Shown: positions 906-64,000, numbered from the stretch's first letter. The stretch is 64,000 nt of DNA from Anaerolineaceae bacterium (GCA_038562455.1 JBCFBD010000007.1:405-64404), one strand, 5' to 3'. Numbers and translations: made by a program. Notes: generated by a model not told the origin, from the letters alone.

Positions 906-1886
906 CTATAGACCTAGAATTTTGGTAATTTCAGCAGATAATACTCCGGGATCCTCGATCGAAAAGATCTTTTTACGGCTCTCCACAGTTGTGAGCAACC
1001 CATTCAGATAGCGAGAAAGGTGCTTTCTGAACAAGACGGTGCCAACGCGTGGGGAATAAAGCGCAACCATACCAGCTAAATGTCTGCTAATAACCGCAAA
1101 CAACTCCTGGTGGGAAATCTCCTCGCGACTCTGACCGCCAAACACCCATGGGTTGCCAATCGCAGCGCGGCCAATCATCACCGCGTCACAACCGGTGTGC
1201 GCAATCATCTGCAGCGCCTGTTGTTTGGAGTTAACGTCGCCATTACCGATGACTGGGATGGTTACCAGTGCTTTAACTTCGGCGATCGCATCCCAATCTG
1301 CATTGCCCTGGTACTGCTGACTGCGTGTCTTGGCGTGCACTGTGATCGCACTGATACCGCAATCATCAAGAATGCGGGCAATTTCGAGGTAATTGCGAGT
1401 TTTTTCGTCCCAACCCAGCCTGATCTTGGCGGTGATTGGGAGCGGTAAGTTATTGACCATGTCACAAGCGATTTGATGCACTTTTTGTGGATGCTTCAAT
1501 AGCCCAGCGCCGGCTCCACGGTTGCTGACGTTACGGGCTGAGCAACCCATGTTTATATCCACCAGGTCAGGCTTGTACTGTGCGAGTTTAATGGATGCCT
1601 CGAGCAAACGTGCGGGGTCGTCATCAAAGACCTGGTAGCTGAAAGGGCGCTCGTGGGCGGAGAACTCAGTTTTGTACTTGAGATGCGGATGTCCGTACTT
1701 CACATCAATCCCGTTGACAAATTCTGAAGTACTCAAAGCAGAGCCAAATTCGCGGCAAAGACTGCGGAAAGGGGAATCAGTGTAGCCATCCATGGGCGCG
1801 AGCAGAAGTCGGCCATGGATCTGCACGGGGCCAATGTAGAAGGGGGAAGCGAGAAAATCTGTTGTTTGCATGGTATATCCAGTCAA
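906..1886 (-). CDS. dus: tRNA-dihydrouridine synthase (Dus family)
   Basis: 326 aa. LLAPMDGYTDSPFR, DINMGCS and a TIM-barrel flavoenzyme pattern are typical of Dus. Confidence 0.85.
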   Translation of the reverse strand: MTGYTMQTTDFLASPFYIGPVQIHGRLLLAPMDGYTDSPFRSLCREFGSALSTSEFVNGIDVKYGHPHLKYKTEFSAHERPFSYQVFDDDPARLLEASIKLAQYKPDLVDINMGCSARNVSNRGAGAGLLKHPQKVHQIACDMVNNLPLPITAKIRLGWDEKTRNYLEIARILDDCGISAITVHAKTRSQQYQGNADWDAIAEVKALVTIPVIGNGDVNSKQQALQMIAHTGCDAVMIGRAAIGNPWVFGGQSREEISHQELFAVISRHLAGMVALYSPRVGTVLFRKHLSRYLNGLLTTVESRKKIFSIEDPGVLSAEITKILGL

Positions 1887-1963
1887 TTATAAGGGACAAT
1901 CAACAACTATTTTGAAATTGCGTGTAGGCAACTAATCACACCAACAAAAAAGACAAGAAATAC

Positions 1964-1991
1964 TTGACAATGAACAAATGTTCTATATAAT
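1964..1991 (+). promoter_or_regulatory. Near-consensus sigma-70-type promoter (TTGACA-16 nt-TATAAT) ending 6 nt before the ATG at 1998
   Basis: TTGACA at 1964-1969 and TATAAT at 1986-1991. The ATG at 1998 lies where a TSS is expected, so the mRNA may be leaderless. Confidence 0.5.
1972..1983. promoter_or_regulatory. LexA-type SOS (Cheo) box GAACAAATGTTC inside the promoter spacer
   Basis: Perfect palindromic GAAC-N4-GTTC. The extended sequence TGAACAAATGTTCT is close to the Gram-positive consensus CGAACN4GTTCG. Confidence 0.5.
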
Positions 1992-1997
1992 AAGATT

Positions 1998-2588
1998 ATG
2001 AAACATACATACATGGAAGGAAATGGTTTAACAAGTCCAGAAGTCGGGCTCCCGCGCGGACTGCTGGTGATCTTCGGCGAACACAGCGGGGCGGCGCGGA
2101 TGCTCGACCTGACTGCCGGGCTTTCCTTACGCGGGCCGCTATACCTGCTGGATTGCGGCAACCGCAGCAACATGTACCGGGTGGCGCGCACGCTGCGAAC
2201 ATTGACCGATGACCCGGTGGCGGTGATGCGCAATATCCGTCTTTCGCGTGCGTTTACCTGCTACCAGGTGGTCGCGCTGCTGGAAAAGGTGGCTGCCAGT
2301 CCTTCCGCACCGGTGCTGGTGCTGGATCTGCTCGACACGTTCATGGACGAAAGCGTGCAACTGCGTGAAAGCAGCCTGCTCTTTGATTCCACGCTGCAGC
2401 ACTTGCTGACAGTGGGGCAGACCGTACCCGTGGTGGTGAGCGCAAAGCCGCTCCTGACGCTTTCTGCGCCGCGCTTCGGGCTACTGGAGCAATTGAAAGC
2501 CGCCGCGGCTGAGGTGTGGGAGGAGACCGCTCTGTATCCTGCGCGTCCAGCGGCAAGCACGCAATTGCCTTTACTCCCTGATTATTGA
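1998..2588 (+). CDS. Hypothetical protein, possibly RecA-superfamily (ImuA/SulA-like) with a degenerate Walker A
   Basis: 196 aa. GLPRGLLVIFGEHSGAAR sits where G-P-G-x-ITEI-G-GxGK[ST] is found in RecA-like cores. A hydrophobic strand plus acidic residues (VLVLDLLDTFMDE) resembles Walker B. The gene is GC-rich and is followed by GAGGAGG, the RBS of the next gene. Confidence 0.4.
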   Translation: MKHTYMEGNGLTSPEVGLPRGLLVIFGEHSGAARMLDLTAGLSLRGPLYLLDCGNRSNMYRVARTLRTLTDDPVAVMRNIRLSRAFTCYQVVALLEKVAASPSAPVLVLDLLDTFMDESVQLRESSLLFDSTLQHLLTVGQTVPVVVSAKPLLTLSAPRFGLLEQLKAAAAEVWEETALYPARPAASTQLPLLPDY

Positions 2589-5300
2589 GGAGGTGCTATG
2601 GGTAGAACGATTCTTTCAGCGACGCAAACCTGGATGGAAGAGGATAAAGCCCTGCGGCGGTTTGTGCGCGCACTGCGCAAAGCTGACCAGGACCTGGTGC
2701 AGGAACTACTGGCGCTTTCACGGCGGCATATCGCCGAGGCTTCATACGCAAGCAACCTTTACCCCATGGATATTTACCTGATGTCGATGCTGCTGGAGAC
2801 CTTTCGCAAAGTGAAACAGCTCGAACGACAGTTGGAGGCGCTCGGGGTACAGCCGGAAGAACACACCACGCTTGATCCGGAGTTCCCGGAACTTCCTACG
2901 CTGGTGGAACTGATTTCACCGGCGCGGGAGGGGGCGCGCGTTGGGGAGCAGAAGCCTCCCGCGGGCGTGGAGTACGTGGACCTGCAGGACGGCGCCTGAC
3001 GATGACTGCGCGGTGGCGGGGTTGGCTGCTCGACCTCTACGAGGATGAAGCAGATGGACTACGAATGTGGTTCATCACCGAGGAGGATACGCGGGTATGC
3101 CTGCACCAGCCGCTAGAGGTGGTTTTCTACGCCAGTGGTGATCCTGCCCAGTTGCGTTCTCTATGGGTGACGCTGCGGCGCTACCCGGAAGTGCTTTCAC
3201 TGGCACGCGAGATGCGTCGCGATGCCTTCATGCCCGAGCCGGTCACCGTGCTCAAGGTGACGGTCGACAGCCCGCGCCATCAGTCGCGCATTTTCAGAGA
3301 GATCATGCAGCGTTACCCGCGCCTGGTCTATTATGACGCCGATCTTTCTTCCAATATCCGGCACGCGGCGCGGTATGGCACTTTCCCGATGGCTTTCTGC
3401 GATGTCGAACATGACGAGGCGGGGCGTATTCTCTCTTTGCAGGTGTTGAACTCGCGCTGGGACCTGGCGGCGGTGCACCCGGTTTTCCGCATACTTACCC
3501 TGGAACCGGATTGCGATCCGGGGCGGGGTGAACCCTCTGCGCTCAAGCTGCAGTTTGGTCGGCGCAAACAGACGCTCATGCTGCAACCGGCTGGCGAGTT
3601 GATCCGCAAATTGAATCAGGTACTGCAACAGGAGGACCCCGACTTTGTGTTGACCAGTTGGGGAGACACCTGGCTAATCCCCACACTGCTGGAACTGGCA
3701 AAACAGAGCGGCGAAAAATTGCTTTTCAACCGGGACGAGCAGCGGGAGGTCGCCTGGCAAAAGGAACTGTCGTATTTTTCCTACGGGCAGATCGTTTTTC
3801 GTCCGGAGGAGGCGCATTTGTTCGGCCGCTGCCACATCGACCAGAAAAGCGCGATGATGTGGCGGGATTACGGGCTGGATGGTGTGCTGGAATCCGCGCG
3901 GGTGACGACGCTGCCGATCGAAAATGCTGCCCGCGTGTCGCCGGGTTCCGGCATTTCCGCGATGCAGATGCTCACCGCCCTCGAGCTGGGCATTCTCGTG
4001 CCGTGGCATAAACAGCAGGTGGAAGTCTTCAAAGATGGCATCGACCTCATTCAACGCGACCGCGGCGGATTGATCTACCAGCCGCTCGTCGGGCTGCACG
4101 CCAACATCGCCCAGGTTGATTTCATCTCCATGTACCCGGCGATCATCATCAAGGGCAACATATCGCCTGAAGTGCCGCTACCGAATGGGATCATCCCTGC
4201 CAGTGAGGAATTGGGTGTGGTTCCCCTGACGCTCAAGCCGCTGTACGAGAAGCGTGTGGCGCTAAAACTACGCGGCGCGGGCAAAGCCAGGGATGACCGT
4301 CTGCTGCGGCGTGACAGCGCGCGTGCTTCTGCGCTGAAATGGCTGCTGGTGGTGTGCTTCGGTTTCCTGGGATACAAGAATGCCCGCTTTGGGCGCATCG
4401 AGGCGCACGAGGCGGTGACCAACGGCGGGCGCGAGGTATTGCTGCGGGCAAAAGAGGTGGCAGAATCAATGGGGTGCGAAGTGTTGCACATGTACGTGGA
4501 TGCCCTGTGGCTCAAGCGCCCGGGTTGTACCCGCAAAGAGGATTTTCAGGATGTGCTGGACGAGATCTCGCTGCAAACCGGTCTGGGCGTATCTCTGGAC
4601 GGCATCTACCGGTGGGTGGCTTTTTTGCCTTCGCGCATGGACGAGCGGGTGCCGGTTGCGAACCGCTATTTCGGGGTCTTCCAGGATGGGTCGATGAAGG
4701 TACGCGGTATCGAGGCCCGGCGGCGGGATACCCCCCCATGGATCGCCGAGACGCAGATAAAAATGCTTGAGCGGCTGAGCCGTGCCGGCAGCGTAAAGGA
4801 CCTGCCGGGCAGCCTGGAGATGGCTTTCGAGATCTTCCAGAAAGCATTGGCAGACCTACGGGCAGGCAAGGTGCCGTTGGAAAAACTGGTGGTGACCTCC
4901 CGGGTCAGCCATGAGTTGGAGGCCTATCGCTCGCCGACCCCTGCCGCGCGCGCCGCACTGCAGATTCATGCACAAACCGGTAAGCAGGCACGCCCCGGGC
5001 AGAAAGTGCGCTTTCTCTACACGCGGGGCGAGAGCGATGTGCGCGCGTGGGAATTACCGGGAAAAATCAACCCGAACGATGTAGACAGAGTAAAATATAC
5101 CGAGTTACTCGCGCGCGCAGCCGCCAGCGTGTTTCATCCATTCGGCATTCGTGATGCGCAATTGAAGGAATGGGCGCACACACAATCACTGGCGTTGGAA
5201 TTTGGGTTTGAGCAGGAGGTGCCGCATGTGCGGAAGGTTCGCCATCATGTTCGATCCGGAAGAGCTGGGGCAGAAGTTGGAGTTGGGGGATCTGCCACCT
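2035..5300. other. Compositional (GC-rich) island relative to the flanks
   Basis: Hand counts of G+C per 60 nt. Inside the island: 2041-2100 = 43, 3481-3540 = 37, 4321-4380 = 33. In the flanks: 1921-1980 = 21, 5881-5940 = 25. Confidence 0.6.
2598..2999 (+). CDS. Hypothetical small helical protein
   Basis: 133 aa with a GAGGAGG RBS 6 nt upstream. The stop lies 2 nt before the polB-like ATG. No family recognised. Confidence 0.55.
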   Translation: MGRTILSATQTWMEEDKALRRFVRALRKADQDLVQELLALSRRHIAEASYASNLYPMDIYLMSMLLETFRKVKQLERQLEALGVQPEEHTTLDPEFPELPTLVELISPAREGARVGEQKPPAGVEYVDLQDGA

Positions 5301-5302
5301 GA
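3002..5302 (+). CDS. Family-B DNA polymerase homolog with degenerate exonuclease and polymerase motifs
   Basis: 766 aa. Motif A is DFISMYPAII (about 4118). Motif B-like is KWLLVVCFGFLGY (4337). The motif C position reads YVDALW (4493-4510). ANRY (4658) sits where KKRY is expected. GIEARRRD and an archaeal/Pol II-like N-terminus (GWLLDLY) are also present. Confidence 0.8.
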   Translation: MTARWRGWLLDLYEDEADGLRMWFITEEDTRVCLHQPLEVVFYASGDPAQLRSLWVTLRRYPEVLSLAREMRRDAFMPEPVTVLKVTVDSPRHQSRIFREIMQRYPRLVYYDADLSSNIRHAARYGTFPMAFCDVEHDEAGRILSLQVLNSRWDLAAVHPVFRILTLEPDCDPGRGEPSALKLQFGRRKQTLMLQPAGELIRKLNQVLQQEDPDFVLTSWGDTWLIPTLLELAKQSGEKLLFNRDEQREVAWQKELSYFSYGQIVFRPEEAHLFGRCHIDQKSAMMWRDYGLDGVLESARVTTLPIENAARVSPGSGISAMQMLTALELGILVPWHKQQVEVFKDGIDLIQRDRGGLIYQPLVGLHANIAQVDFISMYPAIIIKGNISPEVPLPNGIIPASEELGVVPLTLKPLYEKRVALKLRGAGKARDDRLLRRDSARASALKWLLVVCFGFLGYKNARFGRIEAHEAVTNGGREVLLRAKEVAESMGCEVLHMYVDALWLKRPGCTRKEDFQDVLDEISLQTGLGVSLDGIYRWVAFLPSRMDERVPVANRYFGVFQDGSMKVRGIEARRRDTPPWIAETQIKMLERLSRAGSVKDLPGSLEMAFEIFQKALADLRAGKVPLEKLVVTSRVSHELEAYRSPTPAARAALQIHAQTGKQARPGQKVRFLYTRGESDVRAWELPGKINPNDVDRVKYTELLARAAASVFHPFGIRDAQLKEWAHTQSLALEFGFEQEVPHVRKVRHHVRSGRAGAEVGVGGSAT

Positions 5303-5840
5303 CCTGAAATCGAACAGCAATATCTCTCCCGGAACGAATATTCCTGTCGTGTTGGATGCCGTAGACCGAAATGTGAAGATGTTTCGCTGGGGGTTGATCC
5401 CCGGCTGGGCGAAGGATGTTTCTGTGGGATACAAGATGATCAACGCGCGTGCAGAAACAATTGATGAAAAGCCGTCATTTCGCGTAGCTTTTCAACGCCG
5501 GCGCTGCCTGATTCCGGCAGATGGATTTTACGAGTGGAAAATCGAGGATGGGCATAAATATCCTTATTTGTTCACTCTTAAAGATAGAAAGCCATTCACG
5601 TTTGCAGGGTTGTGGGAAACCTGGCGCAGCCAGGAGGGCGGCGAGATCAACAGTTGCACAATCATTACGACGGAGCCGAATAGCCTGGTCGCGCAATACC
5701 ATAACCGTATGCCAGTAATCTTGGGGTACGAGAACCGTTGGCGCTGGCTGGAAGAAAGAACAAAGGAAGAACTCAAGGCGATGCTGATTCCTTGTCAGAG
5801 CGGGATCATGGATATTCCTCAACAGGTCAATCGTCTATAA
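5226..5840 (+). CDS. SOS response-associated peptidase (SRAP/YedK family, abasic-site processing protein)
   Basis: Start set at MCGRF (Cys2 is the catalytic residue in this family). NARAE, GFYEW and YHNRMPVIL are present. It overlaps the polB-like 3' end by 77 nt in another frame. Confidence 0.85.
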   Translation: MCGRFAIMFDPEELGQKLELGDLPPDLKSNSNISPGTNIPVVLDAVDRNVKMFRWGLIPGWAKDVSVGYKMINARAETIDEKPSFRVAFQRRRCLIPADGFYEWKIEDGHKYPYLFTLKDRKPFTFAGLWETWRSQEGGEINSCTIITTEPNSLVAQYHNRMPVILGYENRWRWLEERTKEELKAMLIPCQSGIMDIPQQVNRL

Positions 5841-5896
5841 TTTGATCGATAAGGCTATAATTGATCATATACCAATAAGAAAAAAGAGGGCATACT

Positions 5897-7564
5897 GTGG
5901 AACGTCACGAGATCATCAAAGACTTGCAAGAAAAACCTGAAATGGATATATTGATTGTTGGCGGGGGAATTAACGGGGCAGGAGCTTTTCTTGACATGGC
6001 GGTCAATGGGTTAAGGGTCTTATTGATCGACCGGGGAGATTTCTGCTCGGGCGCTTCTGCTACATCTTCTCACATGGCACACGGCGGGATTCGATACCTG
6101 GAAAACGGCGAATTCCGGTTGGTGCGAGAAGCTGTGGCGGAAAGAAATCGCATGATCCGTAATGCGCCGCACATGGTAAAACCCCTGCCGACTGTCATTC
6201 CCATGTTTAAACTTTTTTCAGGGTTCTTGAATGCTCCTTTGAAATTTCTGAATTTGCTCGACAAACCCTCAGAACGAGGTGCGGCGGTTATTAAGATCGG
6301 ACTGATCTTATACGATTCGTTTACTGGTAAAAATCGAACTGTTCCTGCGCACCAATTCTTTGGAAAAAAGGAAACTTTTAAACGTTACCCCCGACTAAAC
6401 AAGGATGTACGATACACTGCTGAATACTATGATGGATTAATGCTTTCACCTGAGCGTTTGAATACTGAAATCATCCTGGATGCTGAAAAAGCAGGAGAAG
6501 CTGCTATGGCGTTAAATTATGCCTCGTTTGACAGCGTGGACGGGGATACGGTACTACTGAATGACTACGTGGGGGAGCAGATACTGAGGGTAAAACCTAA
6601 GATGATCGTCAATGCAGCTGGTCCTTGGATCGATGATGTGAACAATCGAATGGGCAAGCAAACTAATTACATCGGCGGCACCAAGGGCTCACACATCATC
6701 GTTAAAAATCCTGAATTAAAGAAAGCTATCGGCAATAAGGAATTTTTCTTCGAGAACAAGGACGGTCGGATCGTACTGTTGCTGCCATTCTTCGATAAAG
6801 TAATCATTGGAACCTCAGATCTACCTATTGATGATCCAGATGGGGCCGTTTGTACACCTGAAGAAGAGGCGTATTTCATCGACCTGGTCAAGCGGGTGTT
6901 TCCGGAGATCCCGATCCTGCCTGAGCAGATCGTATTCAGGTTCTCCGGTGTTCGACCACTGGAGTATCAGCATGCCAAAACTACCGGACAGATCACAAGG
7001 GATCATACGATAAAAGAAGACCTTTTGGGCAACATTCCGGTATTAAACCTGATTGGCGGCAAATGGACGAGCTATCGCGCTTTTGGAGAACAGACAGGTG
7101 ATAAAGCGCTTGATTATTTAAGTCAACACCGCAAAGGGACTACTGAAGAGATGAAGATCGGCGGTGGAAGGGATTACCCCCCAACTGACCTGGCAATTCA
7201 AGCATACCTGGATGTTTTTTCGACCAAAGGGTTTGAAAAAGGCATTGTTGAAACCCTTTTCGAACGATACGGATCAACAATCAACGAAATAATTGGCACG
7301 GGAACCATTGAATTTCTTAAATCCAACCCGCTTATTACTGTAAATGAGATTAATTTTCTGGCGCGCACTGAAAAGGTAGTGCACCTAGACGACCTTTTAC
7401 TCAGGCGTACATCATTGGGATGGCTCGGATTGATTGACGAAGATTGTTTGCGGGAAATTTCCATGCTAGTTGGTGCAGTGCTAGGATGGAGCACGGATAA
7501 GAAACAGAACGAGATTGAGAGGGTCAAAGCGTTATTCCTGAAGAATCACGGCGTAACCATTTAG
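5897..7564 (+). CDS. glpD: FAD-dependent glycerol-3-phosphate dehydrogenase
   Basis: 555 aa with a GTG start after AAGAGGG. Shows the dinucleotide fold IVGGGINGAG and SSHMAHGGIRYLE. Confidence 0.85.
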   Translation: MERHEIIKDLQEKPEMDILIVGGGINGAGAFLDMAVNGLRVLLIDRGDFCSGASATSSHMAHGGIRYLENGEFRLVREAVAERNRMIRNAPHMVKPLPTVIPMFKLFSGFLNAPLKFLNLLDKPSERGAAVIKIGLILYDSFTGKNRTVPAHQFFGKKETFKRYPRLNKDVRYTAEYYDGLMLSPERLNTEIILDAEKAGEAAMALNYASFDSVDGDTVLLNDYVGEQILRVKPKMIVNAAGPWIDDVNNRMGKQTNYIGGTKGSHIIVKNPELKKAIGNKEFFFENKDGRIVLLLPFFDKVIIGTSDLPIDDPDGAVCTPEEEAYFIDLVKRVFPEIPILPEQIVFRFSGVRPLEYQHAKTTGQITRDHTIKEDLLGNIPVLNLIGGKWTSYRAFGEQTGDKALDYLSQHRKGTTEEMKIGGGRDYPPTDLAIQAYLDVFSTKGFEKGIVETLFERYGSTINEIIGTGTIEFLKSNPLITVNEINFLARTEKVVHLDDLLLRRTSLGWLGLIDEDCLREISMLVGAVLGWSTDKKQNEIERVKALFLKNHGVTI

Positions 7565-62039: not shown

Positions 62040-63329
62040 TCAGACAATTGTCGCTCCTGTAAAGCGCGGAAGCACAGCGGTTGCGTATGGCAGAACGGCA
62101 ATCTTATCGGCGCCAGTCACATTTTTCTGGATAAAATTGGAAGTTTTCAAGTTTTTAGGCAATGGTTTGAGTAACAATGAATTTACAAGCCCATCAGGCA
62201 TTGAAGATCTGAGGTACACCGTGCATTTTTCCAGGATGCGAGCAACCTGGTAGGCTTTATGCGGTCCCACTGAAAAACCTGTGCGCGAGAATTTTTCGAT
62301 CACCTGAGCTGGAGTCTCCATGCCGACCATGAAATCGAGATATCCTTGCGAGCCCGCCCCTTCGCGACACTCGGCGAAAAGCAGGATTAAGCCGCCCTGG
62401 CGGCAGAATTGAGAGGCGTGCGTCATGGCTTTTTGTGCTTGATAAAGATTGATGTCCTTCGGATATCCGCCTGCGCTTGCGATCACAACATCGTACTGAC
62501 CTTCAGTCTCCACCTGACAGATCTGGTTGACCAGCTTGATTCCTGCAGCCATGACCGTAAGCGGCTCGCCAAAAAAGACCTGCAGGATGTGCTTGTTTTC
62601 ATCCAGAACGGCGTTCAAGGCAAGGTCTACGCCGACAATCCTGCCGATCTCCTCGATATCCTGCCTGAGGGGATTTTCAGCATAATTACCTAGTGTCGAT
62701 GCCGGGTCGACCAGCAGCCGATGGTTGGTTGTAATAGTCTGCCTGCCGCATAAACCAATAGCGGCCGACTTGACGCCGCCAGAAAATCCCGCGAAATGAT
62801 GCAATTCAATGTCGCCCACCACGATTTTCAGGTCATGGTTGTAGAATTCATTATTGACTAACACAGGAGTGCCGCGTAAAGTTTGCCCGATTTCGTATAG
62901 TTTATCCTTATCGTCGCAATTATGCGGGATGATAGTGAAATTTTGGATGATATCTTCGCTAAGGACCAACCCAAATTCCTCTGGTTGCATAGGCAGGTGA
63001 GTGCCGGAAGCGATAAATATCGTAATGTTCTCTTTCAGAACACCACGATCAAGCAACCTTGTAATCAGCGGTGTGAGTAGCAAAGAGTTTGGTACCGGCC
63101 TGGTCTTATCGTTGACGGTGATGGCAATTCGTGAATCTTTTCCCAACAGTTCAAGAGGTGATTGCACTCCGAGAGGGGAGGAGAGCGCGTCAGCCACGAG
63201 TTCTTCAGGGCTCGAAACAACAAAGTGGGATAAGTGCCCAGGCAATAAAAGATCAACACGCTGGTTTTTATCAAAAATATCAAATGCTAATTGTTCGCCA
63301 CCATATGGAAGATCAAATTTCATGTGCAT
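62040..63329 (-). CDS. larA: LarA-family (DUF2088) nickel-dependent racemase/epimerase
   Basis: 429 aa. VNDKTRP, ASGTH, HHFAGFSGG and KAMTHA are present. Confidence 0.75.
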   Translation of the reverse strand: MHMKFDLPYGGEQLAFDIFDKNQRVDLLLPGHLSHFVVSSPEELVADALSSPLGVQSPLELLGKDSRIAITVNDKTRPVPNSLLLTPLITRLLDRGVLKENITIFIASGTHLPMQPEEFGLVLSEDIIQNFTIIPHNCDDKDKLYEIGQTLRGTPVLVNNEFYNHDLKIVVGDIELHHFAGFSGGVKSAAIGLCGRQTITTNHRLLVDPASTLGNYAENPLRQDIEEIGRIVGVDLALNAVLDENKHILQVFFGEPLTVMAAGIKLVNQICQVETEGQYDVVIASAGGYPKDINLYQAQKAMTHASQFCRQGGLILLFAECREGAGSQGYLDFMVGMETPAQVIEKFSRTGFSVGPHKAYQVARILEKCTVYLRSSMPDGLVNSLLLKPLPKNLKTSNFIQKNVTGADKIAVLPYATAVLPRFTGATIV

Positions 63330-63525
63330 ATTCCTTATTCTTATCTTGAATAATTATAGCAACCTGCAAAGAAAATCATTCCATTATTTGCATAATCGAT
63401 CAAACTTGGATCTCAAAAAAACTCCAGTACCCTCAAGCAGGGCAGCCAGATGTCATATTTTGTGTTCATGGTTTCGATAAGTATTATTATCATAAACATG
63501 ATATAATAGTGGCGATTGGAGGACT

Positions 63526-64000
63526 ATGACTACGATCACCCAGGCTATCCAGCTTTACATTCGATCCATAGAATTAGCGCGCAGTCAAAACACTGCCACC
63601 ACTTATCGCAATGCATTAAAGTATTATGCAAGCGTGCTGGTTGACCATAAAATGGATCCGGATTTGACAGCCATCGAATTGCTGCAGGAAGATTCGATCA
63701 TCTGGTTGACCATTGCGCTCAAGCACCACGCAGCCACCACAGAACGGCTCTACCTTACAGCCATCACCGGATTTTTCGAGTTCCTGGTAGCAGAACGTCT
63801 GGTGGAAATCAACTTACCCAGGGTGCGCCTATTGATCCAGCAGCGCGCGCGCAAACCCGGGCAGCGCTTGCCGCAGTTCCCCGCGTCGCAGATCGATCTG
63901 ATCCTCGAAAAAGCCGATGAACTTCTCACCAGGCCGAGCGAAGACGAACCCGAGCGCCTGGTTAATCTACGCGATAGAGCTTTCCTCTACACATTGGCGG
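63526..64000 (+). CDS. Tyrosine-type recombinase/integrase (Xer-like), 5' partial at the window edge
   Basis: GGAGG RBS, and the frame stays open to the end of the window. An N-terminal SAM-like core-binding domain is followed by RDRAFLYTLA, the typical entry to the catalytic domain. Confidence 0.7.
   Translation, partial: MTTITQAIQLYIRSIELARSQNTATTYRNALKYYASVLVDHKMDPDLTAIELLQEDSIIWLTIALKHHAATTERLYLTAITGFFEFLVAERLVEINLPRVRLLIQQRARKPGQRLPQFPASQIDLILEKADELLTRPSEDEPERLVNLRDRAFLYTLA

Follow-up and report, generated by a model that had tools for sequence, protein, structure and literature searches.

A 64,000-nucleotide (nt) stretch of the genome of an Anaerolineaceae bacterium (GCA_038562455.1 JBCFBD010000007.1:405-64404; hereafter the window, with positions counted from its first letter) carries at 1964-2000 a consensus promoter whose spacer is filled by a perfect GAAC-N4-GTTC palindrome and whose -10 hexamer is followed almost at once by a start codon. 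The locus raises the question of which repressor, if any, reads this palindrome, where the transcript begins, and what process the promoter serves. The computational analysis described here, carried out in an assembly of 2.82 Mb, 170 contigs, and 53% guanine plus cytosine (GC) in which the window is C61:405-64404, indicates that the element is probably a sigma-70 promoter with a LexA operator in its spacer and a leaderless start, driving the operon of a PolB2 mutasome. Judged from conserved sequence patterns, it is very probably an SOS switch of an error-prone polymerase operon, that is, an ordinary kind of switch on a previously unreported target.

Read directly, the region is TTGACA-at-GAACAAATGTTC-ta-TATAAT-aagatt-ATG, base for base the layout that an earlier inspection of the same DNA (the sequence-only reading) had described. 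Its elements are the following:

1964-1969, plus strand: -35 hexamer TTGACA, 6/6 consensus (TTGAC[A/G/T] in 74/74 related promoters)
1970-1971: 'at' between the -35 and the box
1972-1983, no strand: predicted LexA (SOS) box GAACAAATGTTC, a perfect GAAC-N4-GTTC dyad that fills the -35/-10 spacer
1984-1985: 'ta' between the box and the -10
1986-1991, plus strand: -10 hexamer TATAAT, 6/6 consensus, near-invariant in relatives (TATACT in 2/74)
1992-1997: 'aagatt' between the -10 and the start codon
1998-2000, plus strand: ATG of iRadA and predicted transcription start site (TSS), 6 nt past the -10

In a consensus promoter scan of 1700-6200, the match at 1964-1991 scores 12/12 with a spacer of 16 nt and is the sole strong sigma-70-like hit; the scan found no promoter-like site on the minus strand for the divergent dus gene, which adjoins the cassette in only part of the related loci. 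Relative to the predicted TSS, the box covers -26 to -15, and the A of the ATG (1998) is the seventh base past the -10. The six bases 'aagatt' that separate the -10 from ATG 1998 hold no Shine-Dalgarno (SD) sequence, as had been claimed.

The palindrome by itself carries little weight. The sequence-only reading had cautioned that such a motif arises about once per 65 kb by chance and had noticed no second copy, and both remarks hold: the window contains exactly one GAAC-N4-GTTC against 0.98 expected, and at least one copy appears in 58/100 shuffles. Genome-wide there are 64 copies, 10 of them intergenic, which is near the non-coding share of ~15% (the gene calls behind these intergenic and upstream counts are crude). 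Because the bare motif occurs at chance level, the significance of the box rests on its placement and context. The full 12-mer is more telling. GAACAAATGTTC or its reverse complement occurs three times in 2.82 Mb, where ~0.3 copies of a given 12-mer would be expected with both strands counted, and all three copies, at the PolB2 operon, at lexA, and at an 81-amino-acid gene on C84, lie in the spacer of a TTGACA...TA(T/A)AAT-type promoter. One of these promoters is lexA's own.

The genes for the SOS regulators were looked up independently of the motif. LexA is encoded on C100 by an open reading frame (ORF) of 241 amino acids with both a DNA-binding domain (PF01726 LexA_DNA_bind, 54.5 bits) and a self-cleavage-type peptidase domain (PF00717 Peptidase_S24, 87.8 bits), and RecA is encoded on C50 (452 bits). 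The possibility, named in the sequence-only reading, that lexA and recA might carry a different operator did not materialize. The lexA promoter reads TTGACA-ct-GAACAAATGTTC-gtg-TATTAT, so that the very same 12-mer stands at the corresponding place in the spacer, and an AGGAGG leader comes after it; the recA promoter reads TTGCCT-ttatt-GAACATATGTAC-TATAAT, with a one-mismatch box abutting the -10. The genome-wide motif scan that the earlier reading had proposed gave a divided answer: the bare core is not enriched, and boxes do stand before lexA, recA, uvrA, uvrB, and dinB. Those of uvrA, uvrB, and dinB (the last confirmed by its IMS domains) are one-mismatch boxes directly upstream, at promoters, and the boxes of the five genes mostly lie between the -35 and the -10 or abut the -10. 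A box of this type is found within 120 nt upstream of only 2.2% of predicted genes; the scan also placed boxes before genes for NurA-domain, SLT transglycosylase, and DnaA_N-domain proteins and for an IS605-type TnpB. The iterated 20-bp position weight matrix behind it served as a finder only, its scores not being a measure of affinity.

Beyond the source genome, five relatives belonging to three families have lexA promoters of the form cTTGACA-N2-GAAC-N4-GTTC-N3-TATnAT. The GAAC-N4-GTTC dyad is reportedly bound by the LexA protein of a member of the Chloroflexi, Dehalococcoides ethenogenes. For Gram-positive bacteria, this motif is established as that of LexA (PMC3323433). Could the operator nevertheless be real and bound by a repressor other than LexA, some other winged-helix or helix-turn-helix protein reading the same dyad? 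The genome offers two weak LexA_DNA_bind-like matches (C50:26660, in a 101-amino-acid frame, and C100:15857, in a 349-amino-acid frame), both at ~23 bits and below the cut-off, and at least eight very strong palindromes of the form TAGAAC-ATAT-ATTCTA stand at promoters of apparently non-repair genes, so the motif family may serve more than one regulon. Such a repressor is nonetheless improbable here. The identical 12-mer at lexA and the related boxes at recA, uvrA, uvrB, and dinB form the signature of a LexA regulon, the motif is the one established for Gram-positive LexA, and the autoregulatory lexA boxes are kept in the five relatives. The identification of the palindrome as a LexA box, made at first sight of the sequence, is supported by these boxes and by the conservation described below.

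Conservation was assessed in 80 PolB2 loci of Anaerolineaceae type (54-85% PolB2 identity) obtained from a scan of species-representative genomes, the sampled operons being Anaerolineae-like loci within the Chloroflexota. The layout TTGACA-N2-5-box-N0-2-TATAAT-N6-ATG is kept in 74 of the 75 loci with DNA upstream of iRadA, the window included. In detail, the 74 promoters consist of TTGAC[A/G/T], 2-5 nt, a box with 0-2 mismatches (46 are perfect), 0-2 nt, and TATAAT or TATACT, as exemplified by TTGACA-aata-GAATAATTGTTC-TATAAT-tgaaat-ATG in Flexilinea flocculi TC1. The box slides by 0-3 nt within the spacer between clades, yet is always kept. In the lone exception (L017:1680-1750, from the Chloroflexi metagenome-assembled genome X2_MetaBAT.11), unrelated coding-like DNA is joined inside the -10, upstream of '...TAATtaggatATG', and an insertion or rearrangement seems to have taken the -35 and the operator.

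An alignment of 62 loci anchored on the -10 locates the constraint. GAAC, GTTC, and TATAAT carry 1.8-2.0 bits per position, the N4 centre 0.8-1.7 bits, the six bases after the -10 0.7-1.0 bit, and the ATG triplet 1.7-1.9 bits; upstream of the -35 the figure is ~0.1 bit per position. Meanwhile, among these close loci, identity drops as low as 33% in iRadA and 54% in PolB2. Half-sites that do not vary, set around a centre that does, are what a dimeric repressor site leads one to expect and simple shared ancestry does not; the comparison indicates strong purifying selection on the box. The operator also extends further afield. Of 401 Chloroflexota genomes sampled evenly, 17 including the source genome have PolB2; 16 of these come from the same order and one from a different order within the class. 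Upstream of the operon, a box that is perfect or has one mismatch recurs in 11/13 of the more distant loci among them, whose PolB2 identity is 44-51%. Ten of these boxes lie in the promoter spacer, and in the genome from the different order the box follows a TTGACC...TATAAT pair.

These data also bear on the idea that the palindrome is no operator at all and that its conservation reflects only its place in a strong promoter, handed down with a cassette that spread recently. The cassette is indeed a compositional island (~60% GC against ~47% in its flanks), it belongs to a family horizontally transferred from archaea (Timinskas 2025, PMC11791011), and one motif per window equals chance. Simple inheritance is very hard to reconcile, however, with half-sites that stay invariant while iRadA declines to 33% and PolB2 to 44% identity, with an N4 centre and a discriminator that vary, with DNA that is random just upstream of the -35, with a box that shifts between clades and is never lost, and with the same dyad at lexA and recA. 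We regard this explanation as highly improbable, more so than a repressor other than LexA on a genuine operator.

Where the transcript would begin is indicated by the same loci. From the position of the -10 (1986-1991), the TSS is predicted at 1998, on the start codon itself. Counted from the -10, a start codon in frame with the conserved iRadA core, with no stop between the two, stands at exactly 6 nt in 63/73 loci and at 8 nt in seven, and a start at the 6-nt position is ATG in 63/64. The N-terminal length of iRadA differs by up to eight residues between loci; the distance from promoter to ATG is fixed. Within the operon, PPB2 has a strong SD (GGAGG), SRAP a strong one (AGGAGG), PolB2 a weak one (GGACGG), and the first cistron none; the lexA and recA transcripts do use SDs. 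Across the genome, TAnAAT precedes ATG or GTG ORFs of at least 100 codons at spacings of 6 and 7 nt in 68 and 63 cases, respectively, as compared with mostly 11-32 and never more than 42 at other spacings up to 30 nt, an excess of ~90 genes or ~4% of genes. This share agrees with the 4.0-5.7% of leaderless genes in those Chloroflexi genomes that have them, and Actinobacteria, Deinococcus-Thermus, and some Chloroflexi are known to have leaderless mRNAs whose -10 precedes the start codon by about 7 nt (Zheng 2011, PMC3160421). In the window, the predicted mRNA has a folding energy of -0.8 kcal/mol over its first 40 nt, compared with -9.8 in internal stretches; among related loci the medians are -2.65 and -8.44 kcal/mol, and the 5' end is the weaker in 61/64.

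A LexA operator could also coexist with a transcript that is not leaderless, whether its TSS lies elsewhere or translation begins at a downstream start codon such as ATG 2013. Three related loci have leaders of 14-23 nt, two of them (L025 and L027) with AGGAG-like SDs, and the 15-20 N-terminal residues of iRadA are poorly conserved and could be dispensable. We nevertheless consider this unlikely. A start at a random position would be in frame in one third of cases, as opposed to the 63/73 loci in which the start 6 nt past the -10 is in frame and open to the iRadA core, and the ATG triplet, at 1.7-1.9 bits, stands out from neighbouring bases at 0.7-1.0 bit or less. There is no SD before 1998 or 2013, the consensus scan gave no other promoter-like site in the intergenic region, and the second in-frame ATG of the window is not kept in relatives. 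That the transcript starts on ATG 1998 to give a leaderless iRadA mRNA, as the sequence-only reading had thought probable, is thus supported by the fixed 6-nt distance, the distribution of SDs, the genome-wide peak of -10 elements, and the predicted lack of structure at the 5' end.

Several observations pull the other way and temper a LexA-controlled, leaderless promoter as the interpretation of 1964-2000. The bare 8-base core is not enriched genome-wide. The related loci are kin, so that 74 loci are not 74 independent events. Apart from lexA and recA, the genes behind the hits were recognized after the scan; uvrA, uvrB, and dinB had not been specified beforehand, and the f^5 figure accordingly overstates the case. 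The weight matrix drifted toward TA-rich flanks that partly overlap the -10, and the lexA box scores below 11 bits with it. Finally, leaderless initiation strongly prefers AUG, making the GTG that one related locus (L005) has at the leaderless position unusual.

What the promoter serves becomes clear from the genes behind it. The sequence-only reading spoke of a repair-type cassette, which corresponds to the known iRadA-PPB2-PolB2 mutasome operon together with SRAP:

1998-2588, plus strand: iRadA, 196 amino acids, RadA/Rad51 fold, broken P-loop (GEHSGAAR), C-terminal QLPLL
2589-2593, plus strand: SD GGAGG of the second cistron, in contrast to the SD-less first cistron
2598-2999, plus strand: PPB2, a small helical partner protein of 133 amino acids with the N-terminus MGRTILSATQ
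3002-5302, plus strand: family-B DNA polymerase, putatively of PolB2 type, 766 amino acids, PF00136
5214-5219, plus strand: AGGAGG, the SD for SRAP, lying within the 3' end of polB2
5226-5840, plus strand: SRAP (abasic-site protection), PF02586 with E 3e-68, MCGR start, overlapping polB2 by 77 nt

The genes for iRadA, PPB2, and PolB2 follow one another in this order, tightly spaced on one strand, which is the sole gene order reported in bacteria, with SRAP a noted neighbour (Timinskas 2025, PMC11791011). iRadA was identified by fold and PPB2 by a motif from the literature: iRadA had no sequence match in Pfam, NCBIfam, or PDB, and searches of the same databases with PPB2 gave nothing useful. 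An AlphaFold model of iRadA (predicted local distance difference test 86, with 32 homologs in the alignment) has RadA, RAD51, and RAD51 paralogs as its top PDB folds (E ~3e-7, probability 1.00, template-modeling score 0.55-0.65), and its Walker A motif is degenerate, with GEHSGAAR in place of GxxxxGK[ST]. The C-terminus of iRadA (window 2560-2585) ends in a conserved Q-x-x-L-[FL], which is QLPLL here and QPALF or QLALF in relatives; a beta-clamp-binding motif of this type has been described for some PolB2 complexes, and the N-terminal MGRT arm of PPB2 is conserved (PMC11791011). The polymerase scores best with NCBIfam model NF004416 (378 bits, under that model's cut-off of 516 bits) and, in PDB, matches archaeal PolB structures at E ~1e-33; its homologs carry Anaerolineaceae or Chloroflexi names.

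The SRAP start codon falls in the last ~25 codons of polB2, follows the AGGAGG, and is read in a different frame. It is the fourth gene, overlapping the polB2 end, only in the 28 closest loci (overlap of 28-73 nt by tblastn), and it is not adjacent to polB2 in the more distant clade among these loci (54-59% PolB2 identity). A one-mismatch box within SRAP, at 5332-5343, was considered as a second operator and set aside as a chance match, not being kept in the 28 relatives. In base composition, the mutasome genes (2001-5200) stand at ~58-63% GC against ~45-50% in the flanks, and the promoter and the first ~12 codons are AT-rich, a pattern that fits foreign origin plus the need for an unstructured 5' end.

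Both the polymerase module and its switch have well-described counterparts. The operon resembles the published bacterial PolB2 mutasome (Makarova 2014, PMC4104785; Timinskas 2025, PMC11791011) in its gene order, in the MGRT of PPB2, in the RadA fold, dead P-loop, and clamp-binding motif of iRadA, and in the nearby SRAP. The PolB2 cassette was horizontally acquired from archaea (PMC11791011), and a link between bacterial PolB2 and the SOS response has been inferred from frequently neighbouring lexA genes (PMC11791011; PMC4104785). Here, unlike in the published systems, lexA lies on another contig, and an operator in cis, within the promoter, would provide the SOS link. PMC11791011 makes no use of the word 'promoter', and the literature searched describes neither a LexA box nor a leaderless start at a bacterial PolB2 operon, nor an Anaerolineae SOS regulon.

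The switch itself is akin to the 'Cheo box' of Bacillus subtilis LexA (DinR), with the same dyad, an A/T-rich centre, and overlap with the core promoter, and its surroundings recall the Gram-positive-type LexA regulon, in which lexA is autoregulated and recA, uvrA, and uvrB are included (for the history of the motif, see PMC3323433). It differs from the B. subtilis type in its host, an uncultured Anaerolineaceae, in its target, the PolB2 operon, and in the position of the box, typically 0-3 nt from the -10. The start site has the features of the leaderless genes of Zheng (2011, PMC3160421), namely, a TAtaaT-type signal at the distance that places the TSS on the start codon, an AUG, and no SD; unlike those genes, it has an operator added in the spacer and a layout conserved across an order for one operon, with a TSS that is predicted.

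A broader parallel lies in other error-prone polymerase systems. The LexA-regulated imuA-imuB-dnaE2 cassette and, in E. coli, umuDC and polB are all silenced by LexA. By analogy, the PolB2 operon, like imuA-imuB-dnaE2, is a multi-gene error-prone module with an inactive RecA-like subunit and a strong LexA operator. The proteins are unrelated, however: PolB2 belongs to family B and is of archaeal origin, as opposed to DnaE2 of family C or UmuC of family Y.

These elements suggest a simple course of regulation. In the undamaged cell, a LexA dimer at -26 to -15 would bar RNA polymerase from the -35 and -10, as at other LexA-repressed promoters. Upon DNA damage, RecA would stimulate the self-cleavage of LexA and free the promoter, both RecA and an S24-domain LexA being encoded in the genome. 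Transcription would then start from the A of ATG 1998, giving an mRNA without a 5' leader, from which iRadA would be translated by leaderless initiation, and the downstream cistrons would be translated from their own sites, PPB2 and SRAP from strong SDs and PolB2 from a weak one. The operon would yield a PolB2 translesion mutasome together with a protein that shields abasic sites. With lexA located on another contig, the archaeal-derived polymerase module would be wired into the SOS regulon in trans. A perfect operator on a perfect promoter suggests, by analogy with other mutagenic polymerases, tight repression and a large induction range.

A bolder proposal is that the operator in the spacer and the leaderless start are obligatory, co-inherited parts of the module across Anaerolineales, that the module was recruited to the SOS regulon a single time, close to the base of the order, and that the absence of a 5' untranslated region is itself under selection. 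We hold this to be doubtful. If true, expression of the mutagenic polymerase would depend only on LexA cleavage and on 70S-type initiation persisting under damage stress, constituting a dedicated 'late SOS' channel.

Further genes of the source genome carry boxes of the same kind. At C84:13197-13522, the 81-amino-acid protein behind TTGACA-ataat-GAACAAATGTTC-TAAAAT is a candidate SOS gene product, for which no Pfam match was found. At C34:5164-6356, a 387-amino-acid NurA-domain protein begins 17 nt behind the one-mismatch box AAACAAATGTTC-CATAAT; its gene, for an archaeal-type end-resection nuclease, would give the putative SOS regulon a second repair gene of archaeal flavour. At C14:1349, on the minus strand, a TnpB-like gene (IS200/IS605-type, judged by eye) has the one-mismatch box GAACATTTGTTT abutting TATAAT and an ATG 6 nt past the -10, so that a transposon-associated TnpB nuclease may be both SOS-controlled and leaderless.

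A second class of palindromic promoters accompanies these. The strongest palindromes of the genome, TAGAAC-ATAT-ATTCTA at 24-31 bits, lie directly after or overlap cTTGACA-N7-TATAAT. They occur at loci L085-L092 (C38:5415, C35:2680, C93:20314, C56:40987, C82:3090, C154:2290, C60:44537, and C59:55609), with further loci of the class at C142:17848, C60:28906, and C77:48974. Leaders of ~250-320 nt after these palindromes carry the repeated words AGTTATCGAAACCAT and GATTCGTTTTTGATTCG; of the former there are ~20 genomic copies, nearly all 100-400 nt downstream of a TAGAAC-ATAT-ATTCTA-type box, and a boxA-like TGCTCTTTACCATCCCCCATAC is present in three of the leaders. The genes behind them, as judged by eye from the N-termini, appear to encode a membrane protein, a secreted protein, and a 720-amino-acid enzyme. 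An Rfam search of the 12 loci with the strongest palindromes returned no family at E up to 0.1. The palindrome-plus-leader class may represent a promoter cassette that is mobile or a family of leaders under SOS control. The window itself contains a lone intergenic leader word, ACTTATCGAAACCAT, at 63468-63482 on the minus strand, flanked by an ORF of at least 158 amino acids (63526-63999, plus strand) and one of 429 amino acids (62040-63329, minus strand), with no LexA-like box adjacent to it.

The operator and the operon are ordinary members of their respective families, and their combination is a useful, unsurprising addition to both. So far, the bacterial PolB2 mutasome has been known from comparative genomics and structure prediction only, and its damage-inducibility has been guessed from nearby lexA genes; the conserved operator would provide a direct regulatory link where lexA is not adjacent. 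For a poorly studied class, the analysis furnishes a working LexA motif and a first list of SOS genes, namely, lexA, recA, uvrA, uvrB, and dinB, with a NurA-domain gene, an IS605-type TnpB, and several unknowns as candidate members. The operon may also serve as a clean natural example of predicted leaderless organization, in which an SD-less first cistron is followed by later cistrons with SDs. Read in this way, the promoter would make an error-prone polymerase of archaeal descent part of the SOS regulon in Anaerolineales, bacteria that are abundant in anaerobic digesters and sediments.

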